64,000 nucleotides of DNA, taken from the NCBI RefSeq assembly GCF_964213995.1, contig NC_135808.1, positions 12,834,001 through 12,898,000 on the forward strand. Direction: 5' to 3'. Below, in pieces: positions 33,939-63,611 of the stretch. A program made the position numbers and the translations under genes. The notes under the pieces are model-generated. The model was not told the DNA's origin and ran no database searches. It saw nothing but the letters and a program-made list of their open reading frames with translations. The DNA is from Mustelus asterias. Its lineage: Eukaryota. The first letter of the stretch is position 1. Each line of letters opens with the position of its first letter.

Positions 33939-34082
33939 TTAAATGTGTCCCATGGCTGAAAATGTTTGGGAAACGCAGATTTTGGGAAGTTCTTCGCCAG
34001 AAACAAGTTCTGCACCAGGAACCATAGTGCCAGATTCACGGCAGCTCTTCACTGCTGGATTTAAATGATGGGCCACCAGCTC
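33939..34082 (-). CDS. Gene B probable terminal exon (ELVAHHLNPAVKSCRESG...SAMGHI*)
   Basis: Very strong acceptor cctttttctcttttgttccgtag; phase 0 gives 47 codons plus TAA and matches the previous donor phase. Confidence 0.6.
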   Translation of the reverse strand, partial: ELVAHHLNPAVKSCRESGTMVPGAELVSGEELPKICVSQTFSAMGHI

Positions 34083-34579
34083 CTACGGAACAAAAGAGAA
34101 AAAGGTGTCAGGAACAGCTGAATAGAAGAGTCCCAGAAAACCCATTGCTGCAGTGAGTTTTCACCACGGTGAACAGATGTCTTCCTATTCAGACTCTCAC
34201 CTTGTCGCTTCAACAATCTCTATTTTTCTGACCCTTACTGTTTCCAGGCACGGTGGCACAGTGGTTAGTGCTGCTGCCTCACAGCGCTGGGGACCCAGGT
34301 TCAATTCCTGGTTTGGGTCACTGTCTGTGTGGAGTTTGCACATTCTCCCTGTGTCTGCGTGGGTTTCCTCCGGGTGGTCCGGTTTGCTCCCACAGTCCAA
34401 AGGTGTGCGGGTTCGGTGGATTGACCATGCTAAATTCCCACTTAGTGTCAGGGGACTAGCTGGGGTAAATGCATGGGGTTATGGGGATAGGGCCACAATA
34501 GGATTGTGGTTGGTGCAGACTTGATGGGCCGAATGGCCTCCTTTTGCACTGGAGGATTCTATGATTCTTTTCACTACAG

Positions 34580-35680
34580 ATATTCAATCCCATTAATCCT
34601 CCACTGCCCACCAGGATGGTACGAAAGGTTACTTTTCTCCTTCGACTGGAGAACCAACCAGTCCCCATCCGCCATCACCCTATCCCACCTGGTTGAGCTT
34701 GTTCTCACATCAATTACTTCTCATTCCAATCCACTCACTTCCTCCAAGGTGTGGATACTTGCATGGGTCCTAACCGTGCCTGCCTAGGGGCATTCCTTGT
34801 TGCAGTCCTACTCAGGCCCCCTTTCCTCACCTCTTTCTCTGGTACACTGATAAATGTACCAATGTCTCTCGCTGCTCTCACCTTGAACAGGAAGAGTTCA
34901 TTGGCTTTTTTTCCCCAATTTACACCTTTGTCTCACCTTCACATTGCCCATCAGTAACCCTTTCCTTTCCTTGGCTTCTCTGTGTCTGTTTCTGGAGATA
35001 GGCTATTAGCTAACATTCATCACAAGCCCATGGATTTTCACAGCTACTTTGACGACTTATGCTCACACCCAGGTTCCTGTCAGGAATCTATTCCACTCTC
35101 CCAGTTTCTCCATCTCTGTCACACCTGTTAAGAGCTAGGTCTTCTGATCTCTTCCCGAGTCTGTGTGGGTTTCGTGCGGGTGTTCCGATTTCTCCCCACA
35201 CTCCAAAGATGTGCAAGTTCAGTGGATTGGCCATGGTCAATTGTCCCTTAGAATCAGTAGTAGGGCAAATGCATCAGGTTATGGCAATAGGACATGGGTA
35301 GGATTGTTGTTGGTGCAGGTTTGATGGGCTGAATAGCCTCCTTATGCACAGTAGGGATTCTATGATCTGTCTTGCTTGTTCTCAACCGAGGATTCCCCTC
35401 AACATGTTTGACAGGGCTCTTCACGTGTTCGATCTATTTTGTGCACTTCTGCTCTCACCGTTTCTCCTCGCTCCCAGAAGCATGATATGGTTTCCTTACC
35501 CTCAGCTTCCACCCCTCCAGCCTTCTCCATTTCTGTCATCTCCAGTGTGTGGTGCCACCACTAAACAGATCTTTCTTTGCCCTCCCTATTCAGCATTCTG
35601 AAGGAAATGCTCCCTCCAAGACAACATAGTCCACTCTCAGTCACCTTCGACACCCATTCCCTTTCCGATGGCACTTTCCA
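34580..35680 (+). mobile_element. Degraded Penelope-like RT fragment, interrupted by a SINE piece
   Basis: Remnants resembling the GxxMG and YKPTDSHSYL motifs with many indels. Confidence 0.5.
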
Positions 35681-35704
35681 GTGAAAGGGTTAATAATCAC
35701 ACTT

Positions 35705-36020
35705 TAGAACATAGAACATAGAACAGTACAGCACAGAACAGGCCCTTCGGCCCACGATGTTGTGCCGAGCTTTATCTGAAACTAAGATCAAGCTATCCCA
35801 CTCCCTATCATCCTGGTGTGCTCCATGTGCCTATCCAATAACCGCTTAAATGTTCCTAAAGTGTCTGACTCCACTATCACTGCAGGCAGTCCATTCCACA
35901 CCCCAACCACTCTCTGCGTAAAGAACCTACCTCTGATATCCTTCCTGTATCTCCCACCACAAACCCGATAGTTATGCCCCCTTGTAATAGCTCCATCCAC
36001 CCGAGGAAATAGTCTTTGAA
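35705..36020 (-). mobile_element. CR1 3' fragment (young subfamily)
   Basis: ORF 35788-36000 and the same tail as 10708 and 36555. Confidence 0.92.
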
Positions 36021-36554
36021 AATCACATAAGCCGCAAGCTGCTAGACTGAGAAAACCACAGGTCTTGATTAAAGCAGACCCAGATAAGTATCAAGGGCCA
36101 TAATACTACACACAATTATGCACATTTACAGCTTTCAGCATCTGTTCGAACAAGAGACAATGGGACAGGGGAGTTGATGAACAACTGGTTAGAAAGATAT
36201 CTTCATAATTGTGTGGAAAGAAATACGTGCTTGGTGATATTACAATTCGGTAGGCGTGCACAAATTGTCATTGGCCAACTTTACCCTTAAGTTATGCATG
36301 GTGTAATTGATAGTTGTGAGTGGATATTGATATAGCTTCTGTGTAAATGTGCATCTTTGATTGGTCACAGAAGACAGAGGGTGGTAGTGGAAGGGTCTTT
36401 TTCCGGCTGGAGGCCTGTTACTAGTGGTGTTCCGCAGGGCTCTGTATTGGGACCTCTGCTGTTTGTGATTTATATAAACGATCTGGAAGAAGGTGTAACT
36501 GGGGTGATCAGTAAGTTTGCGGACGACACAAAATTGGCAGGACTTGCAGATAGT

Positions 36555-39500
36555 AGAACATAGAACATAGAACAGTACAGCACAGAACAGGCCCTTCGGC
36601 CCACGATGTTGTGCCGAGCTTTATCTGAAACCAAGATCAAGCTATCCCACTCCCTATCATCCTGGTGTGCTCCATGTGCCTATCCAATAACCGCTTAAAT
36701 GTTTCTAAAGTGTCTGACTCCACTATCACTGCAGGCAGTCCATTCCACACCCCAACCACTCTCTGCGTAAAGAACCTACCTCTGATATCCGTCCTGTATC
36801 TCCCACCACGAACCCTATAGTTATGCCCCCTTGTAATAGCTCCATCCACCCGAGGAAATAGTCTTTGAACGTTCACTCTATCTATCCCCTTCATCATTTT
36901 ATACACCTCTATTAAGTCTCCCCTCAGCCTCCTCCGCTCCAGAGAGAACAGCCCCAGCTCCCTCAACCTTTCCTCATATGACCTACCCTCCAAACCAGGC
37001 AGCATCCTGGTAAATCTCCTCTGCACTCTTTCCAGCGCTTCCACATCCTTCTTATAGTGAGGCGACCAGAACTGCACACAATATTCCAAATGTGGTCTCA
37101 CCAAGGTCCTGTACAGTTGCAGCATAACCCCACGGCTCTTAAACTCCAACCCCCTGTTAATAAAAGCTAACACACTATAGGCCTTCTTCACAGCTCTATC
37201 CACTTGACTGGCAACCTTTAGAGATTTGTGGATATGGACCCCAAGATCTCTCTATTCCTCCACAGTCTTCAGAACCCTACCTTTGACCCTGTAATCCACA
37301 TTTAAATTTGTCCTACCAAAATGAATCACCTCACATTTATCAGGGTTAAACTCCATTTGCCATTTTTCAGCCCAGCTTTGCATCCTATCTATGTCTCTTT
37401 GCAGCCTACAACAGCCCTCCACCTCATCCACTACTCCACCAATCTTGGTGTCATCAGCAAATTTACTGATCCACCCTTCAGCCCCCTCCTCTAAGTCATT
37501 AATAAAAATCACAAAGAGCAGAGGACCAAGCACTGATCCCTGCGGCACACCGCTAGCAACCTGCCTCCAATCTGAAAATTTTCCATCGACCACCACCCTC
37601 TGTCTTCGGTCAGACAGCCAGTTGCCTATCCAATCGGCCAACTTTCCCTCAATCCCACACCTCCTCACTTTCATCATAAGCCGACCATGGGGGACCTAAT
37701 CAAACGCCTTACTAAAATCCATGTATATGACATCAACTGCCCTACCTTCATCAACACACTTAGTTACCTCCTCAAAAAATTCTATCAAATTTGTGAGGCA
37801 CGACTTGCCCTTCACGAATCCGTGCTGACTATCTCGGATTAATCCGCATCTTTCTAAATGGTCGTAAATCCCATCCCTAAGGACCCTTTCCATCAATTTA
37901 CCAACCACCGAAGTAAGACTAACCGGTCTATAATTACCAGGGTCATTTCTATTCCCTTTCTTAAACAGAGGAACAACATCCGCCATTCTCCAGTCCTCTG
38001 GCACCATCCCCGTGGACAGCGAGGACCCAAAGATCAACGCCAAAGGCTCTGCAATCTCATCCCTTGCCTCCCACAGAATCCTAGGATACATTTCATCAGG
38101 CCCAGGGGACTTATCGACCTTCAGTTTATTCAAAACTGCCAAGACATCCTCCCTCCGAACATCTATTTCCTCCAGCCTATTAGCCTGTAACACCTTCTCT
38201 TCCTCAAAAACATGGCCCCTCTCCTTGGTGAACACTGAAGAAAAGTATTCATTCATCACCTCGCCTATCTCTACTGACTCCAGACACAAGTTCCCACTAC
38301 TGTCCTTGACCGGCCCTAACCTCACCCTGGTCATTCTTTTATTCCTCACATAAGAGTAAAAAGCCTTGGGGTTTTCCTTGATCCGACCCGCCAAAGACTT
38401 CTCATGTCCCCTCCTTGCTCTCCTAAGCCCCTTTTTCAGCTCATTCCTTGCTAACTTGTAACCCTCAATCGAGCCATCTGAACCTTGTTTCCTCATCCCT
38501 ACATAAGCTTCCCTCTTCCTTTTCACAAGACATTCCACCTCTTTTGTGAACCATGGTTCCCTCACTCGGCCATTTCCTCCCTGCCTGACAGGAACATACC
38601 TATCAAGGACATCCAGTATTTGTTCCTTGAAAAAGTTCCACTTTTCATTAGTTCCTTTCTCTGACAGTTTCTGTTCCCAACTTATGCCCCCTAATTCTTG
38701 CCTAATCGCATCATAATTACCCCTCCCCCAATTGTAAACCTTGCCCTGCCGTACGGCCCTATCCCTCTCCATTGCAATAACAAAAGACACCGAATTGTGG
38801 TCACTATCTCCAAATTGCTCTCCCACAACCAAATCTAACACTTGGCCCGGTTCATTTCCCAGTACCAAATCCAATGTGGCCTCACCTCTAGTCGGCCCAT
38901 CCACATATTGTGTCAGGAAACCCTCCCGCACACACTGCATAAAAACTGCCCCATCCAAACTATTTGACCTACAAAGGTTCCAATCAATATTTGGAAAGTT
39001 AAAGTCCCCCATGACAACTACCCTGTGACCCCCACACATATCCATAATCTGCTTAGCAATTTCTTCCTCCACATCTCTATTACTATTTGGGGGCCTATAG
39101 TAAACTCCTAGCAACGTGACCGCTCCTTTCCTATTTCTAACTTCAGCCCATATTACCTCAGTGTGCAGATCCCCCACGAAATGCCTTTCCGCAGCCGTTA
39201 AACTATCCTTGATTAACAATGCCACTCCTCCACCTCTTTTACCAGCTTCCCTACACTTAGTGAAACATCTATACCCCGGAACGTCCAACAACCATTCCTG
39301 TCCTTGTTCTACCCACGTCTCCGTAATGGCCACAACATCGTAGTCCCAAGTACCAATCCACGCCCCAAGTTCATCTACCTTGTTCCGGATGCTCCTTGCA
39401 TTGAAGTAGACACACTTCAACCCACCTTCCTGTCTACCAGTACCCACCCTTGACCCTGATACCTTCCCCAATACCTCACCACCCTCACTGACTTCTGGAC

Positions 39501-40219
39501 TACAACTCCCTTTCCCACTCCCCTGACAAATTAGTTTAAACCCCCCTGAAGAGCCGTAACAAATTTCCCTCCGAGGATATTGGTGCCCCTCTGGTTCAGG
39601 TGCACCCCGTCCTGTTTGTACAGGTCCCACCTTCCCCAGAACGTGTTCCAATTATCCACGTATCTGAAACCCTCCCTCCTACACCATCCCTGCAACCACA
39701 TATTTAACTGCACTCTCTCCCTGTTCCTCAACTCGCTATCACGTGGTACCGGCAACGTACCAGAGATGACCACATGTTTCGTCTTGGCTCTCAGCTTCCA
39801 GCCCAGCTCCAGAAATTCCTGCTTTAAATCCCCGTCCCTTCTCTTACCTATGTCATTGGTACCAATGTGCACCACGACTTGTGACTGTTTCCCCTCCCCC
39901 TTCAGAATCTGGAAAACACGGTCTGAGACATCACGGACCTTGGCATCCGGTAGGCAACATACCATCCGTGAGTCTCTTTTGCTGCCACAGAACCTCCTAT
40001 CTATCCCTCTAACTAACGAGTCCCCAATAACTATCGCCCTCCCGCTCTCCCCCTTTCCCTCCCGAGCCACAGAGACGGACACAGTGCTGGAGATCCTCTC
40101 ACTGCGGCTCCCCACTGGTATGTCATCCCCCTCAACCGTATCCAAAGCGGAATACTTGTTGCTAAGGGGAACGACCACCGGGGATCCCTGCATGGACTGC
40201 TTCCTCCCAGCCCCTCTCA
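36555..40219 (-). mobile_element. Nested near-full-length CR1: ORF1 esterase part plus ORF2 with two in-frame stops
   Basis: ORFs 39531-40193 (GDSLVRG, HIGTND, DGVHLN), 37696-39651, 37252-37677 and 36637-37203; the last three share one frame. Confidence 0.96.
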
Positions 40220-40723
40220 GAGAGCATTGTCAGAAGCTACAGAAGTATATAGATAGGCTGGAAATTTGGGCAAAGAAATGGCAGATGGAGTTCAATCCTG
40301 ATAAATGCGAAGTGATGCATTTTGGTAGAAATAATGTAGGGAGGAGCTATACAATAAATGGCAGAACCATAAAGGGTGTAGATACGCAGAGGGACCTGGG
40401 TGTGCAAGTCCACAGATCCTTGAAGGTGACGTCACAGGTGGAGAAGGTGGTGAAGAAGGCATATGGCATGCTTGCCTTTATAAGACGGGGCATGGAGTAT
40501 AAAAGTTGGGGTCTGATGTTGCAGATGTATAGAACGTTGGTTCGGCCGCATTTGGAAGACTGCGTCCAGTTCTGGTCGCCACACTACCAGAAGGACGTGG
40601 AGGCTTTGGAGAGTTTACCAGGAGGTTGCCTGGTATGGAGGGGCTTAGTTATGAGGAGAGATTGGGTAAACTGGGCTTGTTCTCCCTGGAAAGACGGAGG
40701 ATGAGGGGAGACTTAATAGAGGT

Positions 40724-43700
40724 TGATGCACCTCAATGAGCACCCGGAAACAAGGCTTTAGAACTGAAGGCTTTAATACATTAACAATGAAACTACTAAC
40801 ACAAATTCACCCGTTCAGACTGAAGGGGTCCTGCCGGAGCAGGGGGTCTTATACCCTGCCACCGGAGGCGGGACCCCACTGGAGTGTGCCATGATAACAC
40901 TTGGGACAGGTAAACACCCTATCCCAACAACATAGTACAACCCCCATAACAACAACAATAACAACCCCAGTGGTGAACCAACGATGGTTCACCACATTCA
41001 CCCCTCCTTTAGGAACCAAAGGTGGCGGGGTGGATGAAAACAGACAATGACAAAAAAAATAACAGGATTCACAAGTCCAGACGGTCTGGAGGACCACACC
41101 GACGCTGCGATCTTCTCAACACCGGTTGCGAAACCGGAGCAGGTGCTTGCGGTGGCTCTCTCAAAGCAACATCTGGCTGTCCCCTCAAAGACTCCCGGGC
41201 CGGCCGGCCCTGATGAGGCGATGGTGTAGGGGATCCTGGAACGTTTGGTGGTGGTGGTGGTGGTGATGATGGTGGCGCCGATCTCCGAGTCTCAGGCAAG
41301 CTGTACATGGGAGTAAAAGTGTTATGCACTGGTCCCGGTGCTGACCGCGCCACGTCTGGGGAAGTAATGAGGAGTAGTGGATCTGTGACTGGGGGAATAG
41401 GAGCGACAGGAGTTGCTACGTCCCCTGCGGGCGCCAGGTCTCTAATGGAGACAGTGTCCTCTCGCCCGTCAGGATATGCCACATAGGCATACTGAGGGTT
41501 GGCGTGGAGGAGTTGGACCGGTTCGACCAAGGGGTCGGACTTGCGAGCCCTCACATGGCGCCGCAGAAGGACGGGTCCTGGGTACGTCAACCAGGCTGGC
41601 AATGAGGTCCCCGAGGACGACTTCCGAGGGAATGAGAACATCCTCTCGTGGGGAGTAGCATTGGTTGCCGTACACAGGAGGGAGCGGATAGAATGGAGCG
41701 CAGTTGGAAGGACCTCCTGCCACCGGGAGACTGGAAGGCCCTTGGATTTCAGTGCCAGTAGGACAGCCTTCCAGACTGTAGCATTCTCCCTTTCCACCTG
41801 TCCGTTACCCCTAGGGTTGTAGCTCGTGGTTCTACTAGAGGCAATCCCGAATGAGAGCAGGAATTGCCTCAAGTCGTTGCTCATGAACGACGAGCCCCTG
41901 TCGCTATGAATATAGCAGGGGTACCCGAACAGGGTAAAAAGCTCACTGAATGCCTTGATGACGGTGGCAGTCGACGTGTCCGCACAGGGGAAAACAAACG
42001 GAAACCGGGAAAATTCGTCTATTATGTTAAGAAAATAGACATTCCGATCCGTTGAGGGAAGGGGGCCCTTAAAATCTACACTCAGCCTCTCAAAAGGGCG
42101 AGTGGCCTTGACCAAATGTGCCCGGTCTGGTCGATAAAAGTGTGGTTTGCATTCTGCGCAAATCCGACAACTTCTAGTAACTGACCTGACCTCCTCCACC
42201 GAGTAGGGTAGGTTGCGGGCTTTTATGAAGTGGTAGAGTCTGGTGACTCCAGGATGACACAGATCATTGTGGAGAGCCTTCAAGCGGTCCTCCTGCATGA
42301 TGGCGCATGTTCCGCGCGAGAGGGCATCCGAGGGCTCATTGAGCTTCCCTGGACGATACATAATATCGTAATTATAGGTGGAGAGCTCAATTCTCCACCG
42401 CAAGATCTTATCGTTCTTGATCTTGCCCCTCTGCGTGTTACTGAACATAAACGCCACGGATCGTTGATCCGTGATCAGGGTGAACCGCTTACCTGCCAGG
42501 TAATGGCGCCAGTGTCTGACTGCCTCCACAATGGCCTGAGCCTCCTTTTCCACCGCTGAGTGCCGAATCTCTGGGCCTTGAAGGGTGCGGGAAAAAAACG
42601 CGACGGGCCTGCCTGCCTGGTTTAGTGTGGCGGCTAGGGCGAAGTCCAATGCATCACTCTCCACCTGGAAAGGGATGGATTCATCCACCGCGTGCATCGT
42701 GGCTTTCGAGATGTCGCTTTTCAAAACCTTGAAGGCCAATTGGGCCTCCGGCGTAAGTGGGAAGGTCGTGGACTTAATGAGCGGACGAGCTTTGTCCGCG
42801 TAGTTGGGGACCCACTGTGCACAATACGAAAAGAACCCGAGGCATCTCCTCAGTGCTTTCGTGCTAGCGGGCAAGGGAAGTTCAGTGAGTGGGCGCATAC
42901 GGTCTGGATCAGGGCCAATGACCCCGTTTTCCACCACGTATCCGAGGATGGCTAACCTACGCGTACGGAATACGCACTTTTCCCTGTTATAGGTCAGATT
43001 CAGGCGAGATGCAGTGCGTAGAAAGTGTTGGAGATTCGTGTCGTGGTCCTGCTGGTCATGGCCGCAGATGGTGACGTTATCCAGGTACGGGAAGGTAGCC
43101 CGCAACCCGTTCTGGTCCACCATTCGGTCCATAGCACGCTGGAAGACCGAGACCCCATTGGTGACACCAAATGGAACCCTGAGGAATTGGTATAGACGAC
43201 CATCCGCCTCAAAAGCCGTATATTGTCGGTCCTCTGGGCGGATGGGGAGTTGATGGTAGGCGGACTTAAGGTCTATGGTAGAAAACACTCGGTACTGCGC
43301 AATCTGATTGACCATATCAGAAATGCGCGGGAGAGGATACGCATCCAGCTGCGTGTATCTATTAATGGTCTGACTATAGTCGATGACCATCCGAGGTTTG
43401 TTCCCGCTTTTGACTACCACGACCTGCGCTCTCCACGGACTAGCACTGGCCTGTATGATCCCTTCCTTGAGGAGCCGCTGAACCTCAGATCTAATAAAGA
43501 TCCGGTCCTCAGCGCTGTAACGCCTACTTTTAGTAGCGATGGGCTTGCAGCCAGGTACCAGATTTTTAAAAAGGGATGGTGTCGTGATCTTCAGGGTGGA
43601 TAGATTGCACGCGGGGCGTTTTGGGCAATTTGGAGGCTGCGGCTGGCTCCCTACGGCCAGTGAAGGGAGTGGCCCACCGTACTGTAGGATCACACTCTTC

Positions 43701-45401
43701 ATGTGGACCATAAAATTTAGTCCGAGGAGAATTGGCGCGCAAAGGTGAGGTAACACAAGGAGCCTGTATTGCTCGTAAACTGTGCCCTGTACCTCAAGAG
43801 TTACCATACATCGTCCTTGGATCGGTACAGACCGGGACTGTGATGCCATGGAAATTGTCTGCTTGGCAGGGAGAACCCGGAGTCCACACCTTTTAGCAGT
43901 TTCAGGGTGTATGAAACTTTCGGTGCTCCCACTGTCAAACAGACAATTTACAGTTCTGCCACTAACCTTTACCTCCATCATGGAATGTTCCAGTCTGTAA
44001 TGCCTGGTCTGATCCAGAGAGATCGACGCCACCGTTGGCCCCTGGGTGTCACTGCATGCTGCCGATGTGGATGCTGAGGACCCCTGCTGGTCGCTGCTGC
44101 ATGCTGCCGATGTGGATGCTGAGGACCCCTGCTGGTCGCTCCTAGTCGTCGTGGACCATGATGGCCGCCCCCATGAATCGCATGTGGCCGAGGGCTCCAA
44201 GCGCAGCGACTCCTGGTGGTCTTCCTCCTCCTCTGTTTGCCACGATGGCGCCGTCCTGAGATCGCACGTGGTCGGACCTCGTGGGTACTGCGACGCCGAA
44301 GGAGATTGTCTCCGTTCTGGAGGGTTACAAGCTGCACTGCCGTTTTTAGGTTTGGACCTGCAGACTTTGCCGTAGTGGCCTTTTTTACCGCACTGGCTGC
44401 AGATTGCCGTTCTTGCCGGACACTGCTGCCGTGGATGCTTGGCCCCACCGCAAAAATAGCATCGCTGGCCCCCTGGAGCTGCCGCCGTCGTCGAATCGAT
44501 CTGGGAGCGCGGGTTCGCGGGGCGAGGAGGGAGCAGAGCTTGCTCCAACCACGTTGACTGCACGTGGTCCTCGGGGTACAGCGCCAAGCTCTTCGACGCC
44601 GCCTCCAACCTCACGGCCATCCCCATTGCCTGGGTCAAGTTGAGTTTCCCCTTTTCTAATAATTTAAGTCTGATGTACGAGGACCCTACCCCTGCTACGA
44701 ACGCATCTCGGGCGAGGTCTTGCATGTACTGCTCGGCGGAGACGTCCTTACAGTCACAACCCCTGGCAAGCTGCAGGAGTTCATTGGCGTAGTCTTCTAT
44801 GGTCTCGCCCGACTGCCGACGTCGTGTAGCGAGGAGATAACGAGCGTGAATCTCGTTGGGTGGCGTAATGTACCTATTCTTTAGGAGCTCGACGGCACCC
44901 TGGTAAGTGGAAGCTGCACGAATGGCTAGGTAAATCGTGTCGCTTACCCTTGCGTGGAGGACCTGGAGTCTATCACTGTCTGTAGTGATAGCTACCGAGG
45001 CTGCCAGGTAGTCCTCAAAGCACTTCCACCAATGTTCGAACGTGTTAGCTGCACCGACCGCACGTGGGTCCAGTGTCAGACGATCCGGTTTTAGGATCTG
45101 TTCCATATTCTCAGTTAATGTATTAAATTGATGCACCTCAATGAGCACCCGGAAACAAGGCTTTAGAACTGAAGGCTTTAATACATTAACAATGAAACTA
45201 CTAACACAAATTCACCCGTTCAGACTGAAGGGGTCCTGCCGGAGCAGGGGGTCTTATACCCTGCCACCGGAGGCGGGACCCCACTGGAGTGTGCCATGAT
45301 AACACTTGGGACAGGTAAACACCCTATCCCAACAACATAGTACAACCCCCATAACAACAACAATAACAACCCCAGTGGTGAACCAACGATGGTTCACCAC
45401 A
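40724..45401 (-). mobile_element. Full-length Ty3/Gypsy LTR retrotransposon
   Basis: 273-bp TG...CA LTRs at 40724-40996 and 45129-45401 (identical by eye), TSD GAGGT (40719-40723 and 45402-45406), PPT AAAGGAGGGGTGAA at 41010-40997, single gag-pol ORF. Confidence 0.97.
41069..45106 (-). CDS. Gypsy Gag-Pol polyprotein (two CCHC knuckles, protease, RT, RNase H, integrase), about 1345 aa
   Basis: ATG at 45106 (MEQILKP); CYFCGGAKHPRQQC, CSQCGKKGHYGKVC, LFDSGS, YLDN, ESDAL/EKEA/TDQ, HHCC, VDFKG-SDRG-VERE. Confidence 0.95.
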   Translation of the reverse strand: MEQILKPDRLTLDPRAVGAANTFEHWWKCFEDYLAASVAITTDSDRLQVLHARVSDTIYLAIRAASTYQGAVELLKNRYITPPNEIHARYLLATRRRQSGETIEDYANELLQLARGCDCKDVSAEQYMQDLARDAFVAGVGSSYIRLKLLEKGKLNLTQAMGMAVRLEAASKSLALYPEDHVQSTWLEQALLPPRPANPRSQIDSTTAAAPGGQRCYFCGGAKHPRQQCPARTAICSQCGKKGHYGKVCRSKPKNGSAACNPPERRQSPSASQYPRGPTTCDLRTAPSWQTEEEEDHQESLRLEPSATCDSWGRPSWSTTTRSDQQGSSASTSAACSSDQQGSSASTSAACSDTQGPTVASISLDQTRHYRLEHSMMEVKVSGRTVNCLFDSGSTESFIHPETAKRCGLRVLPAKQTISMASQSRSVPIQGRCMVTLEVQGTVYEQYRLLVLPHLCAPILLGLNFMVHMKSVILQYGGPLPSLAVGSQPQPPNCPKRPACNLSTLKITTPSLFKNLVPGCKPIATKSRRYSAEDRIFIRSEVQRLLKEGIIQASASPWRAQVVVVKSGNKPRMVIDYSQTINRYTQLDAYPLPRISDMVNQIAQYRVFSTIDLKSAYHQLPIRPEDRQYTAFEADGRLYQFLRVPFGVTNGVSVFQRAMDRMVDQNGLRATFPYLDNVTICGHDQQDHDTNLQHFLRTASRLNLTYNREKCVFRTRRLAILGYVVENGVIGPDPDRMRPLTELPLPASTKALRRCLGFFSYCAQWVPNYADKARPLIKSTTFPLTPEAQLAFKVLKSDISKATMHAVDESIPFQVESDALDFALAATLNQAGRPVAFFSRTLQGPEIRHSAVEKEAQAIVEAVRHWRHYLAGKRFTLITDQRSVAFMFSNTQRGKIKNDKILRWRIELSTYNYDIMYRPGKLNEPSDALSRGTCAIMQEDRLKALHNDLCHPGVTRLYHFIKARNLPYSVEEVRSVTRSCRICAECKPHFYRPDRAHLVKATRPFERLSVDFKGPLPSTDRNVYFLNIIDEFSRFPFVFPCADTSTATVIKAFSELFTLFGYPCYIHSDRGSSFMSNDLRQFLLSFGIASSRTTSYNPRGNGQVERENATVWKAVLLALKSKGLPVSRWQEVLPTALHSIRSLLCTATNATPHERMFSFPRKSSSGTSLPAWLTYPGPVLLRRHVRARKSDPLVEPVQLLHANPQYAYVAYPDGREDTVSIRDLAPAGDVATPVAPIPPVTDPLLLITSPDVARSAPGPVHNTFTPMYSLPETRRSAPPSSPPPPPPNVPGSPTPSPHQGRPARESLRGQPDVALREPPQAPAPVSQPVLRRSQRRCGPPDRLDL

Positions 45402-48358: not shown

Positions 48359-48438
48359 AATACATTCAGGGTCATCAGCCTCTTTCACATTGGGGTTTGG
48401 AGTTGGGGTTCGAGTTCTCCATGCATTCCATTTTCTAT
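48359..48438 (-). CDS. Gene B juxtamembrane cytoplasmic exon (YRKWNAWRTRTPTPNPNVKEADDPECI)
   Basis: Acceptor caccaacag and donor ATT|GTAAGT, phase 1-0; basic stop-transfer RK directly after the TM. Confidence 0.8.
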
Positions 48439-51531: not shown

Positions 51532-51633
51532 ATATGATGTAACCGGCAAAAAGGATCAAAACTAAAATGAATGGCACGAATGCAGCAAAAATTAGATTTG
51601 TTTGTAGATTGTCGACTGGTTCACATTCATTAC
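51532..51633 (-). CDS. Gene B last TM exon (GNECEPVDNLQTNLIFAAFVPFILVLILFAGYII)
   Basis: Acceptor tatctattgcag and donor T|GTAAGT, 102 nt, phase 1-1, very strong TM helix. Confidence 0.85.
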
Positions 51634-52398: not shown

Positions 52399-52499
52399 AG
52401 AAAATAACAACTTCCAAGTGTCATTCCTTTTTGGATTGGGTATTTTTCCCACTCAATGTTCTTCCCACTTCGCATCAGCGATGGCTCGCAGAATTGTTA

Positions 52500-53679: not shown

Positions 53680-55432
53680 AGAAGAAAGAACAAAGAAAAT
53701 TACAGCACAGGAACAGGCCCTTCGGCCTCCAAGCCTGCACTGACCATGCTGCCCGACTTAACTAAAACCCACTACCCTTCCGGAGACCATATCCCTCTAT
53801 TCCCATCCTATTCACATACTTGTCAAGATGCCCTTTAAAAGTCACTACCGTATCCGCTTCCACTACCTCCCCCGGCAACGAATTCCAGGCACCCACTACT
53901 CTCTGTCTAAAAAACCTGCCTCGTACATCTCCTTTAAACCTTGCCCCTCACACCTTAAACCTATGCCCCCTAGTAATTGACTCTTCCACCCTGGGAAAAA
54001 GCTTCTGACTATCCACTCTGTCCATGCCTCTCATAATCTTGTAGATTTCTATCAGGTCTCCCCTCAACCTCCGTCGCTCCAGTGAGAACAAATCAAGTTT
54101 CTGCAACCCCTCCTCATAGCTAATGCCCTCCATACCAGGCAACATCCTGGTAAATCTTTTCTGTACCTTCTCCAAAGCCTCCACACCCTTCTGGTAGTGT
54201 GGCAACCAGAATTGAACACTGTATTCCAAGTGCGGCCTAACTAAGGTTCTATAAAGCTGCAACATGACTTGCCAATTTTTAAACTCAATACCCCGGCCGA
54301 TGAAGGCAAGCATTCCATATGCCTTCTTGACTACCTTCTCCACCTGCATTGTCACTTTCAGTGACCTGTGTACCTGTACACCCAGATCCCCTTGCCTATC
54401 AATATTCTTAAGGGTTCTGCCATTTACTGTATATTTCCTATCTGTATTAGACCTTCCAAAATGCATTACCTCACATTTGTCTGGATTAAACTCCACCTGC
54501 CATCTCTCCGCCCAAGTCTCCAACTGATCTATATCCTGCTGTATCCTCTGATGGTCCTCATCGCTATCCGCAAATCCACCAACCTTTGTGTCATCGGCAA
54601 ACTTACTAACCAATCCAGTTATATTTTCCTCCAAATCATTGATATATATTACAAACAGCAAAGGTCCCAGCACTGATCCCTGAGGAACACAGTCCAACGC
54701 CGGCATCTCCACATCATGAACACCACTTGTCACAGCCCTCCATTCAGAAACGCACCCTTCCACTGCTACCCTCTGTCTTCTTTGAGTCAGTTTTGTATCC
54801 ACCTTGCCAGCTCACCTCTGATCCCATACGACTTCACCTTCTGCACCAGTCTGCCATGAGGGACCTTGTCAAAGGCCTTACTGAAGTCCATGTAGACAAC
54901 ATCCACTGCCCTACCCTCATCAATCATCTTTGTCGCTTCCTCGAAAAATTCGATCAAGTTCGTGAGACACGATCTCCCCTTCACAAAACCATGTTGCCTC
55001 TCACTAATACGTCCACTTATTTCCAAATTGGAATAAATCCTGTCTCGAAGAATCCTCTCCAATAATTTCCCTACCACTGATGTAAGGCTCACCGGCCTGT
55101 AATTACCTGGATTTCCTTGCTACCCTTCTTAAACAAAGGAACAACATTGGCTATTCTCCAATCCTCCGGGACCTCCCCTGTAGCCAGTGAGGATACAAAG
55201 ATTTCTCTCCCTTGCCTCTCTCAGTATTCTGGGGTATATCCCATCAGGCACTGGGGACTTGTCTACCTTAATGTTTCTCAAGAACCCCAATACCTCCTCC
55301 TTTTTGATCTCAACATGACTCAAACTATCTACCCAACCTTTCCCAGACTCATCATCCACCAAGTCCTTCTCTTTGATGAATACTGACACAAAGTACTCAT
55401 TTAATACCTCGCCCATTTCCTCTGGCTCCACG
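53680..55432 (-). mobile_element. 5'-truncated CR1 LINE
   Basis: ORFs 55129-55431, 54787-55092 and 53948-54802. Confidence 0.95.
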
Positions 55433-55699
55433 CAATTCCTAAGAAACCTCTTTCGTCATATTTTGAAGTGAATGCATCAATGTGAGTAATATCAAAAACA
55501 TTTAGGAAAAAGTTTAGGGAAGGTCATGCCATAACAGTTAGATGATAAAGGATGAAGAGAGATTTGAGTGAAGCATTCATATTGAATGAGACTGGTTGAG
55601 CCCAAATGGTCTGTTTCTGTACTGTATTCTCAACGTAATTTGAAGTATTTTTGCCACTCAAGTTAAAAAGGCAGTTTAGGAGAAATTTATTTCCACAGG

Positions 55700-56382
55700 C
55701 GGCGGGGTGGCATCGTGGCACTGTGGTTAGCACTGCTGCCTCACAGCGCCAGGGACCCAGGTTCTATTCTGGCCTCGGGTCACTGTCTGTGTGGAGTTTG
55801 TCTCCCCGTGTCTGCATGTGTTTACTCTGGGTGCCATTCCTCTGGTTTAGAATTATAGAATCATAGAAACACTGCAGTGCAGAAGGAGGCCATTCGGCCC
55901 ATCGAGTCTGCGCCGACAACAATCCCACCCAGGCCCTATCCCCGTAACCCCACATATTTACCCCGCTAATCCCTCTAACCCACACATCCCAGGATACTAA
56001 CGGGCAATTTAACATGGTCAACCAACCTAACCTGGACTTCTTTCAGACTGTGGGAGGAAACCAGGGAGCACCCGGTGGAAACTCACGCAGACGCGGGGAG
56101 AATGTGCAAACTCCACTCAGACAGTGACCCAAGCCGGGAATCGAACACAGATCCCTGGAACTGTGAGGCAGCAGTGCTAACCACTGTGTCACCGTTTCCT
56201 CCCACAGTCCAAAGATGTTCGGGTTAGGTTGACTGGCTATGCTAAATTGACCCTAGTGTCAGGGGGATTAGCAGGGTAAATATGTCAAGTTACAGGAATA
56301 GGGCCTGGGTGGGATTGTTGTCGGTGCAGACTCAAGGGGCCGAATGGCCTCCTTCTGCACCGTAGGGATTCATTGATTCTAT
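55700..56382. mobile_element. V-SINE(+) interrupted by V-SINE(-) at about 55850-56193
   Basis: Plus-strand consensus resumes at GTTTCCTCCCACAG after the inserted copy. Confidence 0.85.
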
Positions 56383-56706
56383 GAGGATCGAATGTTTTAC
56401 CACAAGGAGCTGTTGAAATGGGACCATTGTATATATTGAAGGAAATTTGGAGAAGTATTTGAGGCAGAGTGCTCAGTCGGGATGTGAGGAGACAGCAGAG
56501 TAGAGTGATTAAATTCAGATTGGTCTTGCAAAGTGGCACAGACACAATGGGCCAAATGGCTTCCTTCTGCACTAGAATCATCAATCGTTTGATAGTTTCC
56601 AATGTACGATGTAGCAAAAATGACACAATCCTAACCAGACAATTCCTGACCCGACGTAACATTCAGAATTAATTTGCTGGCTTCTATTTTATCACTGACC
56701 ACTCAC

Positions 56707-56805
56707 CAGCTTGAAGCTTTGGTTTCGCAATCAGGAATGTCGATGTACACAACACACTGAGTTCACCTGCCGCAGTTACTGCGACCATTAACATCAGAAA
56801 GTGAG
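56707..56805 (-). CDS. Gene B TM exon (SHFLMLMVAVTAAGELSVLCTSTFLIAKPKLQA)
   Basis: Acceptor cattccttcccag and donor CTG|GTGAGT, 99 nt; only the phase-1 frame is open. Confidence 0.7.
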
Positions 56806-57583
56806 CTGGGAAGGAATGACACGCAATTACAGAGTGCGCAAAAAATTATGCACGCACGCACGCACACGGGAAGTACCTGAAGGATATTCCTATTCCTGTG
56901 TTTGGGATTATTGGATCATCTGGAACACAGGAAAATAGGCAGGAAAACTCTACATCCTGAGCAGTCTGCCTGATACTTGTTCCATTTCAAATCAGATTGC
57001 AAATCCGAGTCTTGTTTATGGATGTTTACACCTCTCTCCCCATTTCTCCTGGATTGGTTATGTCTGGGTGGTCCAATACTCCCAGGAGCAGAAAGTGACC
57101 TCTTTATCTTTCTCTACTGAACTTGTGGTCCAAATATGAGTGTGCGGGTGCCAGTGGTGGCTGTGAAATGAATTCACTGTCAGGCCATTCACTTGATCTA
57201 TTATTAATTTCACAGTCGTTGGCATTTGGCCATCATATCTCAACTGGTGATGGCCTCGTCACCTGGAGCTATTAACATAGAAACTCTAATTCTCCTTTTG
57301 CCCCTTCTGGATCCCCAAGTTCCAATGTTGGGATGTGCTGGGGAGCAGACATTACTTTACAGAAGAGAGATGTCGACTCTGCAGTGAAATTTGACAGAAG
57401 CAGCCTAATACTCCAAACAGCAAACCAAGGTCCAGCCTGACTCATGGCTTGAAGCAGGAATGTCAAGTCCATTTTCTATATTGGGCCTGATCTGACATTG
57501 CAGCACGTAAAGGTGGGGAAGCCACACTCAGCACAAGTTATTTGGAAACACTGATGGAAATTGGTGTGCTTTGTTGATTTCCT

Positions 57584-57935
57584 GGCAGCATGGTAGCACA
57601 GTGGTTAGCACTGCTGCCTCACAGTGCCAGGGACCCGGGTTTGATTCCAGCCTTTGGGTGACCGTCTGTGTGGAGTTTGCACTTTCTCCCCGTATCTGTG
57701 TGGGTTTCCTCTGGTTGCTCCGGTTTCCTCCCACAGTCCAAAAGTGTGTGGGTTAGGTGGATTAGCCATGCTAAACTGCCCCGTAGTATCCCAAGATGTG
57801 TAGGTTAGGAGGATTAATGGGGTAAATGCATGGGGTTAGAGCGGGGTGGGTGGGGGTGGTGGCTTGGGTAAGATGCACTGAGAGATGATGCAGACGCAAT
57901 GGGCCGAATGGCCTCCTTCTGCACTTTAGGGATTC
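57584..57935 (+). mobile_element. HE1-type V-SINE
   Basis: Same consensus. Confidence 0.88.
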
Positions 57936-58189
57936 AATGAAAATGGCTGCAATATAATTCAATTCTTTGGTCCCTGGCCCTACACCCAATCCAGTTGTGG
58001 TGTCACGGTCACTTTTGTCTTTCTCATCTTATATGCTTCGCTGGAAAACTGTAGTAGCTGTACAATGAAGGCTCCAGCACCTGTTTCAGGACCCCTTTGT
58101 AAATATACGTAAAAAGCAAGAAGGAGGATGTGCCATGTGATATCCATTAAGACTTTTAAAAAATAAAATTGGCTGCTGAAGTAAATTCA

Positions 58190-59083
58190 GGGACAGTGTG
58201 TCTGGTTAACAGTGAGGCGGAGTGTCTTGGGCTACAAGGCAATACAGAAGGAATGGTCAAATGGGCAGAAAAGTGGCAGATGGAATTTAACACTGAAAAG
58301 TGTGAGGTGATACACTTTGGAAGGAGTAATTTGACAAGAAAGTATTTAATGATGGTAGGACACTCAAAAGTTCTGCAGAACAAAGGGACCTTGGTGTGTT
58401 TGTCCACAGATCTCTGAAAGCAGAAGGGCATCTTAGTAGAGTAGTGAAAAATGCATATGGGACACTTGCTTTTATCAACCGAGGCAAAGATTACAAAAGC
58501 AGGAAAGTCATGTTGGAGTTGTATAAAACTTTGGTGTGGCCACAGCAAGAGTGCTGTGTGCAGTTCTGGTCGCCACATTATTGCACGGGAGGGGATGCAG
58601 AGAAAATTCACTCGCATGCTGCCTCGGATGGAACATTTAAGTTATGAAGAGACTTTGGATAGGTTTGAGTTGGTTTCGTTGGAGCAGAGAAGACTGAGGA
58701 GGCGACCTGATCGAGGTGTACAAGATTATGAGAGACATGGACATAGTAGATAAGGAGCAACTATTCCCCTTAGTTGAAGGGTCAGTCACAAGGGGACATA
58801 GGTTCAAGGTGAGGGGCAGGAGGTTTAGGGGGGATGTGAGGAAAATCTTTTTTGCCCAGAGGTTGGTGACGGTCTGGAATGCGCAGCCTGGGAAGGTGCT
58901 AGAGGATGGTTGCCTCAAATCCTTCAAAAAGTATCTGGATGAGCACTTGGCATGTCATAACATTCAACGCTATGGGTCAAGTGCTGGCAGATGGGATTAG
59001 ATGGGAGTTCAGGTGTTTCTAATGTGTCGGTGCTGACTCGATAGGCCAAAGGGCCTCTTCTGCACTGTATGATTCTATGATTC
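58190..59083 (+). mobile_element. CR1 3' fragment (older)
   Basis: WAEKWQMEFN...TRGHRFKV; ATTCTATG tail. Confidence 0.9.
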
Positions 59084-59207
59084 CTGGGTCCACAGTACTA
59101 CAGCTGGAGACTGTAAATTTACACTCAATCCTGCTGAATTTCCCCTTATGATTTACCAGAAATGCAGCGTGTCTAAATTTGAACCATCAAATCGAACATC
59201 ACTCTTT

Positions 59208-59497
59208 CAATCATAGAATCCCTACAGTGCAGAAGGAGGCCATTCGGACCATTGAGCCTGTACCAACAACAATCCCACCTCGTCCTATCCACGTAACCCT
59301 GCATATTTACCCTGCGAATCCCCCTGACACTTAGAGAGGATTTAGCACATCTTTGGACATGAAGGGGCAACTTAGCATGGCCAATCAACCTAACCTGCAC
59401 ATCTTGGATTGTGGGAGGAAACCCACACAGTCATGGGGAGAATGTGCAAACTCCACACAGAGAGTCACCCAAGGCCGGAATTGAACCCGGGTCCCTG
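59208..59497 (-). mobile_element. HE1-type V-SINE
   Basis: Same consensus. Confidence 0.85.
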
Positions 59498-59520
59498 TGC
59501 AATCGTGCGGTGACACCATA

Positions 59521-60073
59521 TGTGGGAGTTAGGTTACAACTGTGAAAATTAAAGTTCCATAATTGTCAAAAAAATACTCTGTCAAGTAATGGAAAATGAT
59601 TATTAGCCAAACACAGCCTTTAGTCAGGCCTTCAGTAAGGCTAACGCTGACGTAAGCAGGATAAGTGAGTATATCTAAAACCTTGTTCCAGAAACACTGC
59701 ATTCCAGGTCATGACAGCAGGATGAAAACAAAATAATAAGTTCCCATGGCGATTTCCAAATAGTAAGAAATGGGGACATATTATGCTAATAAAGGGTTGG
59801 TTTTCTATTGGATAAGAAAGGGCAAAAGGCCTATGCTATGATTGGTGGATATGTATGTCAATGAAAGATGTGAAAAATCTCTTGTTCCTGATTTGTAACT
59901 GCTGAGCTGTTTCTCTATAACCTGAGAACTGCTCCGGTCATCCAGTGTTGGTGGAGAGTTCTCCTTGTGCACAAGTAATCAAAGACTTTGCATTTGATGC
60001 ATGGTGTCCAGTGCTGTTTGTGTTAAGAGTCGACTGAGTGCCTTTAGATTGCTGATACCCAAGAGAACGAACA
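59521..60073 (+). mobile_element. Solo LTR (ERV-like), 553 bp
   Basis: TGT...ACA termini, 4-bp TSD CATA (59517-59520 and 60074-60077), ATTGG boxes and TATAA. Confidence 0.7.
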
Positions 60074-60149
60074 CATAGAATCCAAATCTCACCAACCCTC
60101 CCCTCAACATTGACCATGAGATTTTAGAACACTGGATATAAAAACTTAC

Positions 60150-60254
60150 ACTTGGCCTTCAGGATCGTGAATGACCTGTCACAAATCAAAAATACGGATG
60201 GCATTGCCAAGAGACAGAAGAACACCAATACGGACACTGTTTTTTTGTCAGGTC
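60150..60254 (-). CDS. Gene B TM exon (GPDKKTVSVLVFFCLLAMPSVFLICDRSFTILKAK)
   Basis: Acceptor ttttgttcttttaatag and donor T|GTAAGT, 105 nt, phase 1-1, open and hydrophobic. Confidence 0.75.
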
Positions 60255-60469
60255 CTATTAAAAGAACAAAAAGCGAATAAAGTTACATAATTTCATCGAT
60301 GAGAGAATATGTGCCATTTGCAAGTTCATTCACCACCGCGCCTCTCAAGACGTGGCAAGACTGTGAAGCATGAAAAGAACGGGAGATAGTGACTTTCATG
60401 TATTGCTTAAGGGAGGCAGGAGGTGCAATATTTGGATTTTCATCGGGCCTTTAACAACGTTCAGATAAT

Positions 60470-60810
60470 TTGAAATCAGGAAACAAGTCGCAGAATGGAC
60501 AGGAAGTTTGGAAAATAAATGGATATAGGAGAAACGATACAGTTTGAATGTATACAAAAATCATTACAACTCGTGATGCAGGTTAATAAAGTCATTAAAA
60601 ATTGAACTGAGATCCATTTACAGAGGGTTAAAATTGAACAACCAAGATGTTAAGTTGAATTTGTATCAAACATTGATTACGCCTCACTTATCGAATACTG
60701 TTCATTTCTCCAATTATAAAAATGATAAAGGCGCACGTGAAGGTGCAAAGGTATCTCACAAGAATTATATCAGAGTTGACAGATTATAACGATGAGGAAA
60801 GGCTGAGTGT
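60470..60810 (+). mobile_element. Very degraded CR1 fragment
   Basis: Remnant LYQTLI.PHL motif. Confidence 0.4.
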
Positions 60811-60852
60811 CATGAAAATGTGCTCTATGCCAAATAGTAATTTTTAACACAC

Positions 60853-60980
60853 TGGCCAGGATTTTACCGGCACACCCGCCCGACTCCGGGGGCGGGCGAG
60901 GCTCGGAGAACGGAATTCTCCGTTGGCCTCGGGTGGGATCGTACGAACCTCGGGCGGACATGCCGGTAAAACTCCGCCCT
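60853..60980. repeat. Palindromic MITE-like element; related ends at 3129-3407, 4600-4726, 49767-49895 and 51930-52070
   Basis: GGCCAGGATTTTACCGGCA...TGCCGGTAAAACTCCGCCC terminal inverted repeat. Confidence 0.65.
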
Positions 60981-61584
60981 CTGTATTCAATGAATAAAGA
61001 AAATGTTACGAAAAAATTCAAAGTGCCGAAAGAGCGAGAAAACGGGTGCGTTTCAAACCTGGTTTTTGGGCAAGATTAAAAACGCAATCTTATATCACCC
61101 AATTTCAACTAAACACCAATGTGGGGACACTAACACGACAAAGCCAATTAGGGTAAAGGACCAATATTTTTTATTCATTCATTCAGGAGATGTAGGCTTC
61201 ATTGGGCAATAAATGCTTGCCTTACCATTCCAATTACCCTTGAGAAAGTGATGGTGAACCATGGCTTCACCATAATTAACAGGTAAAATAATTGGCTTGC
61301 TAAGTCATTTCTCACAACAGTTAAGAGTCAATCACCTTTCTGTTAGTCTGTGAGACACATGTACGCCAGACTGGGTAAGGCTGGAAGGTTTCCTTTCTGA
61401 ATGAACCAGATGGGTTTTTACAACACTCTATCTACCAGCTCGTTGTCATCATTTCAAACTCTGGCTTTTTAATCCTCATTTGTTGAGTTTCTAAATTTAA
61501 ACATGCCAGCTGAAATTTGAACTTATATCTCCAGAAAATTGGCCCAGCCCACAGGATTACTGATCCAGTCACAACCAGCATTGG

Positions 61585-62218
61585 GGCATCACAGTTCCAG
61601 GGACCCAGGTTCAATTCCTGGCTTGGGTGCATGTCTGTGTGGAGTTTGTACTTTCTCCCCGTGTCTGCGTGGGTTTCCTCCGGATGCTTCGGTTTCCTCC
61701 TATACTCCAAAGATGCGCAGGTTAGGAGGATTGGACATGCTAAGTTGCCTCTTAGCATCAGGGGGATTAAGCTTTTAAGTTTTAAAAAAAGTTTATCTAT
61801 TAGTGTCACAAGTAGGCTTACGTTAACGCTGCAATTAAGTTACTGTGAAAATCCCCTCATCACCACACTCCGGCGCCTGTTTCAGTACACTGAGGGAGAA
61901 TTTAGCATGGCCAATGCACCGAACTAGCATGTCTTTCAGACTGTGGGAGGAAACCAGAGCACCCGGAGGAAACCCATGCAGACACGGGGAGAACGTGCAG
62001 ACTCTGCACAGACAGCGGCCCAAGATGGGAGTTGAACCCAGGTCCTGATGCTGTGAGGCAGCAGTGCCCCCTATTGTGCCTCCCTATTATGCCATCATGC
62101 CGTCCATGGTAAATATGTGAGGTTAAGGGGACAGGGGCTGGGTGGGTTGGTTATCGGTGCAGGTTTGATGGGCTGAATGGCCTCCTTCTGCACTGTAGGG
62201 ATTCCATAATTCTATGAT
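61585..62218. mobile_element. V-SINE(+) interrupted by tail-B V-SINE(-) at about 61775-62105
   Basis: Plus-strand tail resumes at GGTAAATATGTG. Confidence 0.85.
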
Positions 62219-62656
62219 CAATGCTCCCATCCCCTTTCTCTTGGGCCTTCATAAATGCAAAACATCTTTGAACATTGACGTTTGTGTCAATTCTCAGTGG
62301 GATCAGGTTACTCTGCCACAGAAATGGAATTAGGGGAACATTTGCAAGAATTCCTGAGCTTTTGGGGCCAGTAGTGAGGGCCAGAGCAGATCGCAGTGAG
62401 ATAGAGACTTATCAACATAGCTGATGGACAACTGTACTCTATATATTAATATGGAGTGAGGTTGTAACGCTGGAGGTCATGAAGCCACAGTTACATGGGG
62501 CTACATGTGGACACTCCACATTTAAAAAGTGTTCAATTCCTCAAGACTCAATTTGAATATGAATGCAGAAGGATTAGAATTGTGGAAAATATTTAATATG
62601 GGTCTAGCAGAAACATGCACGGCCAGACTGGCAGAGCTTGTAGAAATAAGTAGGAT

Positions 62657-63085
62657 CATTCTTTCTGAAACGACCCTGTCTAATCCTGTTAGAATTGTAT
62701 AAGTTTCTGTGAAAGGGGATCTCATAGAAACGTATAAGGCTCTAACAGGACTAGACAGGATAGATTCAGAAAGAATGTTCCTGATGGTGGGGCAATCCAG
62801 AAGTAGGGATCATAGTTTGAGGATAAGTGGTAAACCTTTTAGGACTGAGGTGAGGAGAAATTTCTTCACCCAGAGGGTGGTATGTGGAATTCACTACCAC
62901 ACAATGTAGTTGAGGCCAAAACATTGTGTGATTTCAAGAAGAGGTTAGATACAGCTCTTGGGGCTAATGGGGATATGGGGGGAGACGTGAGCAGGATATT
63001 GAAGTTGACGATCAGCTATGATCAAAGTTAATGGTGGAGTGGGATTGAAGGGCTGAATGGCCAACTCCTGCTGCTAGTTTCTATG
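62657..63085 (+). mobile_element. CR1 3' fragment with inverted 5' duplication
   Basis: KGDLIETYK...RNFFTQRVV; 62657-62712 is the reverse complement of 62722-62777. Confidence 0.85.
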
Positions 63086-63415
63086 TCCTTCGCTGAGGAA
63101 CATCAGAGGTAGCTTGACAAGCTTGGAGAATGGGCTAACAAGTGTTAATGCGGGAAGACTGGTCAAAAATAGACAGATTTTTGCAGGAATTGCTGGGGTC
63201 GCAAGATTGAGAATGAGTGGAAATTATTCATTACAGTTGATTCCAATTTCTTCAGAAATGCAATGAGGGTATAAAAGTCGATGGGAGCAGTTCTGAAGGA
63301 ATTTCCAAACTTAGTGGGTCTTTTGCAAAAAAAAAATTTTTTTGATTCCAGTCCGCAAAGCAACAAGTTGATTGAGGTTAAATTCATGGTTTGGCAAAGT
63401 AAGATTGGAGCTCAC

Positions 63416-63611
63416 CCAAATTCTCGGTCTGCAACATATTAAACTGGTATTTGCTGCATTGGAACGTAGTGTATTGTAGAAGTATAATTACCAACTGGGA
63501 ATAAGGAAACAGGAGCACATACAGTACCTTCAAGCCATATCCAATACCCAAGGATGACGACAAGAGGCAAATACTGCACAATTTGGAGTAGATTTTCAAA
63601 TAACTCACAAA
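63416..63611 (-). CDS. Gene B most upstream visible exon (hydrophobic); two alternative readings
   Basis: Acceptor ttcttattgttccag at 63612. Either phase 0-1 to GTGAGC at 63415 (FVSYLK...VLYVLLFPYSQLVIILLQY...TENL) or phase 1-1 to GTACTG at 63527 (CELFENLLQIVQYLPLVVILGYWIWLE). Both join the next exon in frame. Confidence 0.55.

Follow-up and report, generated by a model that had tools for sequence, protein, structure and literature searches.

A ten-exon Mustelus asterias gene encodes a predicted five-pass immunoglobulin receptor resembling CD47 in design

A 64,000-nucleotide stretch of the Mustelus asterias genome (contig NC_135808.1, 12834001-12898000; hereafter, the window) carries on its minus strand the last six exons of a ten-exon gene, which we read with very high confidence as encoding immunoglobulin (Ig) domains on five membrane helices. 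The gene belongs to an ancient and apparently undescribed family of Ig five-pass receptors of jawed vertebrates. We favour treating its membrane domain as a separate family that would function as the CD47 domain does, homology to CD47 being unproven. Coordinates prefixed C8 follow the numbering of contig NC_135808.1, on which the window is C8:12834001-12898000; the sequence examined at the locus comprised 1.46 Mb around the window.

Results

Exon chain and gene model

The gene had been proposed in an earlier note, made from the letters of the window, as six minus-strand exons joined into one open frame. All six were confirmed, as each has an AG acceptor, the internal ones have GT donors, and a single open frame runs through them. 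They correspond to exons 5-10; the four preceding exons are to the right of the window. A homologue search found the matching RefSeq protein, XP_078075231.1 (LOC144497662; P0044 here), which is a Mustelus asterias model of 465 residues with the source name uncharacterised protein. The ten-exon chain, with 9/9 introns of the GT-AG type, translates letter for letter to P0044 followed by the stop codon. The same exon series was found again in paralogues of the surrounding cluster and in other species. The exact match to P0044 with its 9/9 GT-AG introns, together with the recurrence of the series, excludes a chance origin of the chain. The gene is not hidden, as the note had called it, since RefSeq already holds a model, though an unnamed one.

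The chain starts with exon 1 for the signal peptide (C8:12927168-12927084, minus strand, as are all those that follow), exon 2 for the IgV domain (C8:12908052-12907747), exon 3 for an IgC2 domain with an extra cysteine, Cys195 (C8:12899617-12899354), and exon 4 for membrane helix 1 (C8:12898423-12898295). The signal-peptide and Ig exons expected beyond position 64000 were thus found after extending rightward. Within the window, exon 5 (63528..63611, 84 nt) encodes helix 2 and ends in the family's W-x-x-x-E-G loop motif, exon 6 (60150..60254, 105 nt) encodes helix 3 and a basic inner loop, and exon 7 (56707..56805, 99 nt) encodes helix 4, the least hydrophobic. Exon 8 (51532..51633, 102 nt) supplies outer loop 2, with Cys361 in a C-E-P motif, and helix 5. 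The basic, Pro-rich start of the cytoplasmic tail is encoded by exon 9 (48359..48438, 80 nt), and the tail end and stop codon by exon 10 (33939..34082, 144 nt).

Exons 5-8 are phase 1-1, exon 9 is 1-0 and exon 10 is 0-stop; introns 1-8 are in phase 1 and intron 9 is in phase 0. The note was right in giving each helix a phase-1 exon. The gene as a whole has five membrane-helix exons, each phase 1, the fifth (helix 1) lying just right of the window. For exon 5 the note had left two ends, of which 63528 is the donor used in the P0044 chain, whereas 63416, although it also reads through, is unused in P0044 or homologues. ATTAAA hexamers occur 681, 1613 and 2244 nt 3' of the stop codon, and no RNA records are listed for the 1.4-kb stretch round exon 10.

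Protein layout and predicted topology

The 465-residue protein consists of a signal peptide, an IgV domain, an IgC2 domain, five hydrophobic segments and a tail of ~70 residues. Loop charges and tail motifs were counted in 46 of 56 alignment rows, after ten exon-skipped, partial or tail-less rows had been dropped. The mean number of lysines plus arginines was 2.9 in inner loop 1, 3.9 in inner loop 2 and 3.5 at the tail start; for the outer segments the means were 0.5, 0.5 and 2.0. The Mustelus asterias protein has four N-glycosylation sequons, every one of them within the Ig domains. This charge bias and the confinement of the sequons point to an outside N-terminus, five crossings and an inside C-terminus. 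A structural model of a close catshark relative (P0058), built with 56 sequences, showed five long helices and a further, short helix within inner loop 2, with a mean predicted local distance difference test score (pLDDT) of 78 and a predicted template modelling score of 0.63. Hydropathy, charge bias and the model thus support the prediction of five membrane helices with the C-terminus inside.

The V domain of the protein contains no cysteine, as is the case in 34 of 49 rows, and only one of the 49 has two. Among the matches listed, CEACAM1, LAG3, CD48 and CD2 are some of the solved structures closest to the ectodomain; the V domain is of the CD2/CEACAM type and the second domain of the C2/I type. 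The 46 tails contained no immunoreceptor tyrosine-based activation motif (ITAM), no switch motif (ITSM) and one sequence like the inhibitory motif (ITIM), and 28 of them had no tyrosine.

Database isoforms of relatives, which are annotation models and not reads, were also compared. Exactly one helix exon (1, 2, 3 or 5) was missing in eight of the 22 isoform pairs, and the IgC2 exon was missing in one (P0053). If such single-helix skipping is real, the membrane topology downstream would invert.

Species range

A profile of the membrane part matched 40 proteins at an expectation value (E) <=0.001 among 1.84 billion representatives. Twenty-seven were chondrichthyan (sharks, ray, chimaera) and 13 were tetrapod, the latter from a caecilian, two salamander species, a turtle, four birds, platypus and echidna. 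The family is consequently not restricted to chondrichthyans, contrary to the suggestion in the note, as it extends to birds, turtles, monotremes and amphibians. The 40 included no protein from a teleost, frog, squamate, marsupial or eutherian, absences that are soft because the tetrapod matches are already weak (E 3e-13 to 1e-4). When the profile was built from tetrapods only, 35 of 38 chondrichthyan rows outscored every reversed or locally shuffled control (35.5 bits for the Mustelus asterias protein; best control, 18.3 bits). Shark and chicken members are ~22% identical. Among the turtle and chicken members are full-length proteins on assembled contigs of 1.5-2.7 kb, a size that implies spliced transcripts.

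The membrane part matched no Pfam family at a meaningful level, its profile matched no PDB sequence at E <=10, and ESM Atlas gave no usable match for it. With the chicken protein, ESM Atlas returned a 110-member chordate cluster, probably its own, and then ordinary Ig receptors. A word-based search with the Mustelus asterias membrane part recovered itself and one catshark protein only from 806 candidates. Two stingray proteins (P0056 and P0057) fell outside the membrane profile, with match probabilities of 2.6 and 0.2. Besides the family's IgV they carry a second, internal IgV and ~9-12 hydrophobic segments, and are either fused models or expanded multipass forms.

Automatic source names of members include HEPACAM-like, CD48-like and VEGFR-like, the HEPACAM-like name being taken from the ectodomain. 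A full-text literature search that included gene ids, with subscription journals and supplements outside its scope, found no description of the family, and the available part of PMC13262535 held nothing on it. The proposal of an uncharacterised Ig-multipass receptor gene was right.

A predicted tether between the IgC2 domain and the membrane part

In addition to the IgC2 disulphide of C151 and C200, the protein has two further cysteines: C195 precedes C200 by five residues, and C361 stands directly in front of helix 5. By standard Ig geometry, C195 is at the membrane-proximal end of its domain. Both columns carry letters in 52 rows, of which 44 have the two cysteines and four have neither; in a quick tree built without outgroup Ig sequences, these four double losses represent two changes on separate branches. 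One cluster paralogue also lacks both. We consider it likely from this covariation that C195 and C361 form a disulphide equivalent to the inter-domain bond of CD47. A complex prediction of the IgC2 domain with the helix bundle, run without an alignment, scored 0.04 and spoke neither for nor against the bond. In CD47, C15 is bonded to C245 in the loop before helix 5, followed by I246-P247, and loss of this bond impairs ligand binding and signalling (available part of PMC8410850, as for all CD47 citations below).

Comparison with CD47

CD47 and the family share an Ig ectodomain on five membrane helices with the N-terminus out and the C-terminus in, which is predicted for the family. Both have a Cys-x-Pro before helix 5 that is paired with a cysteine of the nearest Ig domain, as has been shown for CD47 and is predicted here. 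Both also have a short first outer loop containing Gly, which is near-invariant in the family (16/16 tetrapod and 29/30 chondrichthyan rows) and has G182 as its CD47 counterpart (PMC8410850). Unlike CD47, the family has two Ig domains (three in some members), a CD2/CEACAM-type V domain without the canonical disulphide, a predicted tether cysteine in IgC2 rather than IgV, and a multigene tandem cluster, with no therian member found among the 40 profile matches.

Three motifs had been matched to CD47 by eye. Two of these are one helix out of register: the exon at 63611 encodes helix 2 and the exon at 60254 opens with the outer loop that leads to helix 3, whereas the CD47 stretches matched to them belong to helix 1 and to the inner loop leading to helix 2. 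The third, the C-E-P before helix 5, is in register with CD47 C245-I246-P247 (PMC8410850).

The family could be a true distant paralogue of CD47, with the five-helix domain and tether coming from one ancestor and the Ig part exchanged or extended, a reading that we regard as unlikely. The helix count, the topology, the Cys-x-Pro predicted to be tied to the nearest Ig domain and the Gly of outer loop 1 all agree with it. One helix per phase-1 exon is also the arrangement of the CD47 gene, and the IgC2-skipping isoform P0053 has exactly the domain order of CD47. A viral fold search placed three poxvirus CD47-like models at ranks 7, 11 and 15, but weakly (E 0.27-0.47, template modelling score ~0.26, root-mean-square deviation (rmsd) ~20 A), so these are a weak lead only. 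Against common descent, the Pfam CD47 membrane family PF04549 matched 0/18 membrane segments at E <=1 and 0/14 divergent members at E <=10, CD47 was absent from the 40 membrane-profile matches, and PF08204 (CD47-type IgV) gave among 14 proteins a single match (E 0.063) that falls under the cut-off. These and the other sequence blanks are soft because HMMER filters lose weak hydrophobic matches. The V domain without its canonical disulphide and the tether cysteine in IgC2 likewise oppose this reading. In the alignment, the linker between IgC2 and helix 1 is G-L-x-x-L-H-like and has no conserved W-F pair as in the SWF linker loop, which in CD47 docks into the outer loops of a five-helix fold with helix III at its centre (PMC8410850).

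The structure searches spoke neither for nor against a shared fold. With the P0058 model, Foldseek gave no PDB match at E <=0.001, and VIA-align returned generic four-helix bundles over helices 1-4. The best was the vinculin tail (Z 11.8, rmsd 2.9, 121 residues aligned), a level that is within the range of common helix arrangements. No CD47 chain was among the 50 VIA-align matches listed, which excludes nothing, and among the matches listed the full-length model matched through its Ig domains only. Pfam searches of the Mustelus asterias genome for its own CD47 found nothing convincing. None was seen either in 200 kb beside IFT57 or in 200 kb beside BBX, which we take from human gene order to be the neighbours of CD47, in an exon scan that misses weak acceptors. 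Downstream of BBX, at C17:70.76-70.93 Mb (L177-L193), we observed a cluster of receptor genes with a VJ-type V, a C1-like domain, a single membrane exon and a PPP motif. The proposed CD47 link stands for the design, with five predicted helices and the Cys-x-Pro parallel; the Pfam, PDB and profile searches gave no sequence evidence for descent.

The genomic cluster

Nine multipass genes, including the one described here, are arranged in tandem at C8:12.16-13.24 Mb; all five helix exons were found in six of them and four in the other three. Four further genes apparently have IgV, IgC2 and helix-5 exons only and would be single-pass. For the gene and one paralogue, the ratio of nonsynonymous to synonymous substitution rates (dN/dS) was 0.37 in Ig exons and 0.62 in membrane-helix exons; the calculation covers this one pair.

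At C8:12.60-12.81 Mb, a unit of ~72-75 kb with IgV-IgC2-helix-5-only genes and orphan helix-5 exons has been triplicated recently, and its genes are apparent single-pass derivatives of the five-pass family. The paralogue at C8:12978266 (L013) and its orthologues have an additional phase-1 exon of 87 nt, mildly hydrophobic, that separates the exons of helix 2 and helix 3 and may provide a longer outer loop 1 or an added helix. The last intron of the gene houses a long terminal repeat retroelement with an unbroken gag-pol-like frame of 1380 aa (window 41069-45211, minus strand), and related copies are present elsewhere in the cluster.

Scattered through the cluster are three single-pass IgV genes of a different type. 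One is gene A of the earlier note (window 11913-2362, minus strand), with a leader near 11913, IgV at 9210-8833, a membrane exon at 3864-3772 and a next exon near 2400; its two paralogues are also in the cluster. Relatives occur in sharks, rays, turtles and chicken (LOC771657), and nearly all are uncharacterised. The note had placed the Ig exons next to gene A, which proved to be a separate single-pass gene. As a 5' end of the five-pass gene it was rejected, since it is downstream of that gene and is equipped with a leader and membrane exons of its own. The chicken five-pass gene (LOC422295) and a chicken relative of gene A are each on a contig of 90,861,225 bases, which suggests that the linkage is old. 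A bamboo shark gene model (P0010) fuses a single-pass IgV gene to a five-pass gene, suggesting that the two are adjacent in that species too.

The left flank of the cluster is a TRIM array. At C8:12.06-12.14 Mb (L137-L145) there are about six near-identical tandem TRIM genes of the RING-B-box-coiled-coil-PRY/SPRY type. A flank scan of 200 kb per side, covering 56 of 1284 candidate frames, showed TRIM genes and mobile elements only. In the right flank, C8:13.35-13.38 Mb (L160-L163) contains broken endogenous-retrovirus-like gag, pol and env pieces, labelled by eye. An IgV-IgC2 gene at the right cluster edge (C8:13469354-13482811, L172-L173) is apparently single-pass and lacks the extra IgC2 cysteine.

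Discussion

Proposed function

We lean slightly towards a cell-surface recognition receptor held upright by the predicted disulphide, as CD47 is. V domains of CD2, SLAM and CEACAM bind Ig partners on other cells, and the CD2/CEACAM-type V domain of this family would do the same, the partner being itself, a paralogue or one of the single-pass IgV receptors of the cluster. A bond from Cys195, at the membrane-proximal end of IgC2, to Cys361 would fix the angle of the ectodomain on the helix bundle. Since the tail is devoid of tyrosine motifs, signals would travel by way of the bundle and of membrane partners, not by ITIM, ITAM or ITSM. Judging from the expanding cluster, fast change and neighbours, an immune or barrier role is probable.

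The ectodomain has its best matches in the CD2/SLAM, CEACAM and HEPACAM groups, in which a C2 domain likewise follows a cysteine-poor V domain. Those proteins are single-pass or glycosylphosphatidylinositol-anchored and many signal via ITSM or ITIM, whereas this family has four extra helices before the last one and nearly lacks such motifs; only some of its cluster neighbours are single-pass.

Several points weigh against this account. Splicing in Mustelus asterias is taken from the RefSeq model rather than from reads. The model of the protein itself, built with 25 sequences, is of low quality over the membrane part, with pLDDT <50 at 324-373, and the hydrophobicity of helix 4 is moderate (mean 1.44). 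The disulphide is predicted from covariation alone, and the Fisher p of 6e-4 for the cysteine pair overstates the case because the rows are related. C361 occurs without C195 in three of the 52 rows and C195 without C361 in one, a partial model, while the loop cysteine is present and the Ig cysteine absent in one other multipass gene of the cluster and in the triplicated single-pass genes. The immune role is drawn from cluster behaviour and ectodomain type only.

Alternative explanations

HEPACAM/GlialCAM serves as an auxiliary subunit of a channel or transporter, and the family could be an epithelial or glial junction or auxiliary-subunit protein of that manner, its Ig part serving adhesion and its bundle acting as chaperone to such a partner. 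The HEPACAM-like source names given to many members from the ectodomain, the tails without immune tyrosine motifs and the few tetrapod representatives found per species agree with this. We nevertheless find it doubtful, given that tandem expansion, triplications, mixed single-pass and multipass forms, fast-changing membrane exons and the neighbouring TRIM array are more typical of immune clusters, and that shark-chicken identity is only ~22%.

A recognition receptor remains our preferred reading for the family, but this particular copy could be decaying or mainly four-helix, its helix-1 exon donor having changed. At the in-frame 99-nt position of exon 4, four of five paralogues have a GTAAGA donor where this copy has GAAAGA; the RefSeq model uses instead a weak GTGTTG donor 30 nt further on (129 nt), which adds ten residues. 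Helix-1-skipping models exist in relatives (P0038 and P0051). The copy may therefore use the weak donor, skip helix 1 or be decaying. We judge a decaying or mainly four-helix copy to be rather improbable, because the 465 codons are free of stops and frameshifts, the remaining eight donors and all nine acceptors are ordinary GT and AG sites, both tether cysteines are retained, and dN/dS was <1 in the sole pair tested.

The canonical disulphide of a B7-type V domain is a feature of Skint and butyrophilin proteins. The Skint-like design suggested in the note does not hold, as the family has five helices rather than three and a V domain of a different type, without that disulphide. Membership of the Skint/butyrophilin family is very improbable: Skint1, a butyrophilin-family protein, shares IgV and IgC in domain order only, several membrane helices (three) and a tandem cluster (available part of PMC4382165 for its domains and helices), but the second domain here is C2/I type with CEACAM/CD2-like neighbours, and no Skint was among the 40 profile matches.

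Implications for the family

According to PMC8410850, no five-pass receptor of the immune system other than CD47 is known, and its membrane fold resembles that of no other protein. The family described here would add another Ig five-pass design, which is conserved among jawed vertebrates and is predicted to have the same tether to an outer loop. If it is related to CD47, it explains the origin of CD47; otherwise it is a clear example of convergence. As a speculation to which we attach a low probability, it could be a missing sister family of CD47. Disulphide-tethered Ig five-pass receptors would then have served an ancient self-recognition in jawed vertebrates, from chimaera to platypus, beside a single-pass IgV partner, and been lost in therians, with skipping of phase-1 helix exons flipping the topology or making single-pass forms. 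Were this true, the supposedly unique fold of CD47 would gain a family.

The automatic names of members, such as HEPACAM-like, CD48-like and VEGFR-like, are misleading. The presence of the family in chicken, axolotl and turtles makes it open to study there, and the shark cluster, where multipass and single-pass receptors are built from the same phase-1 exons, offers a direct view of the gain or loss of membrane helices.

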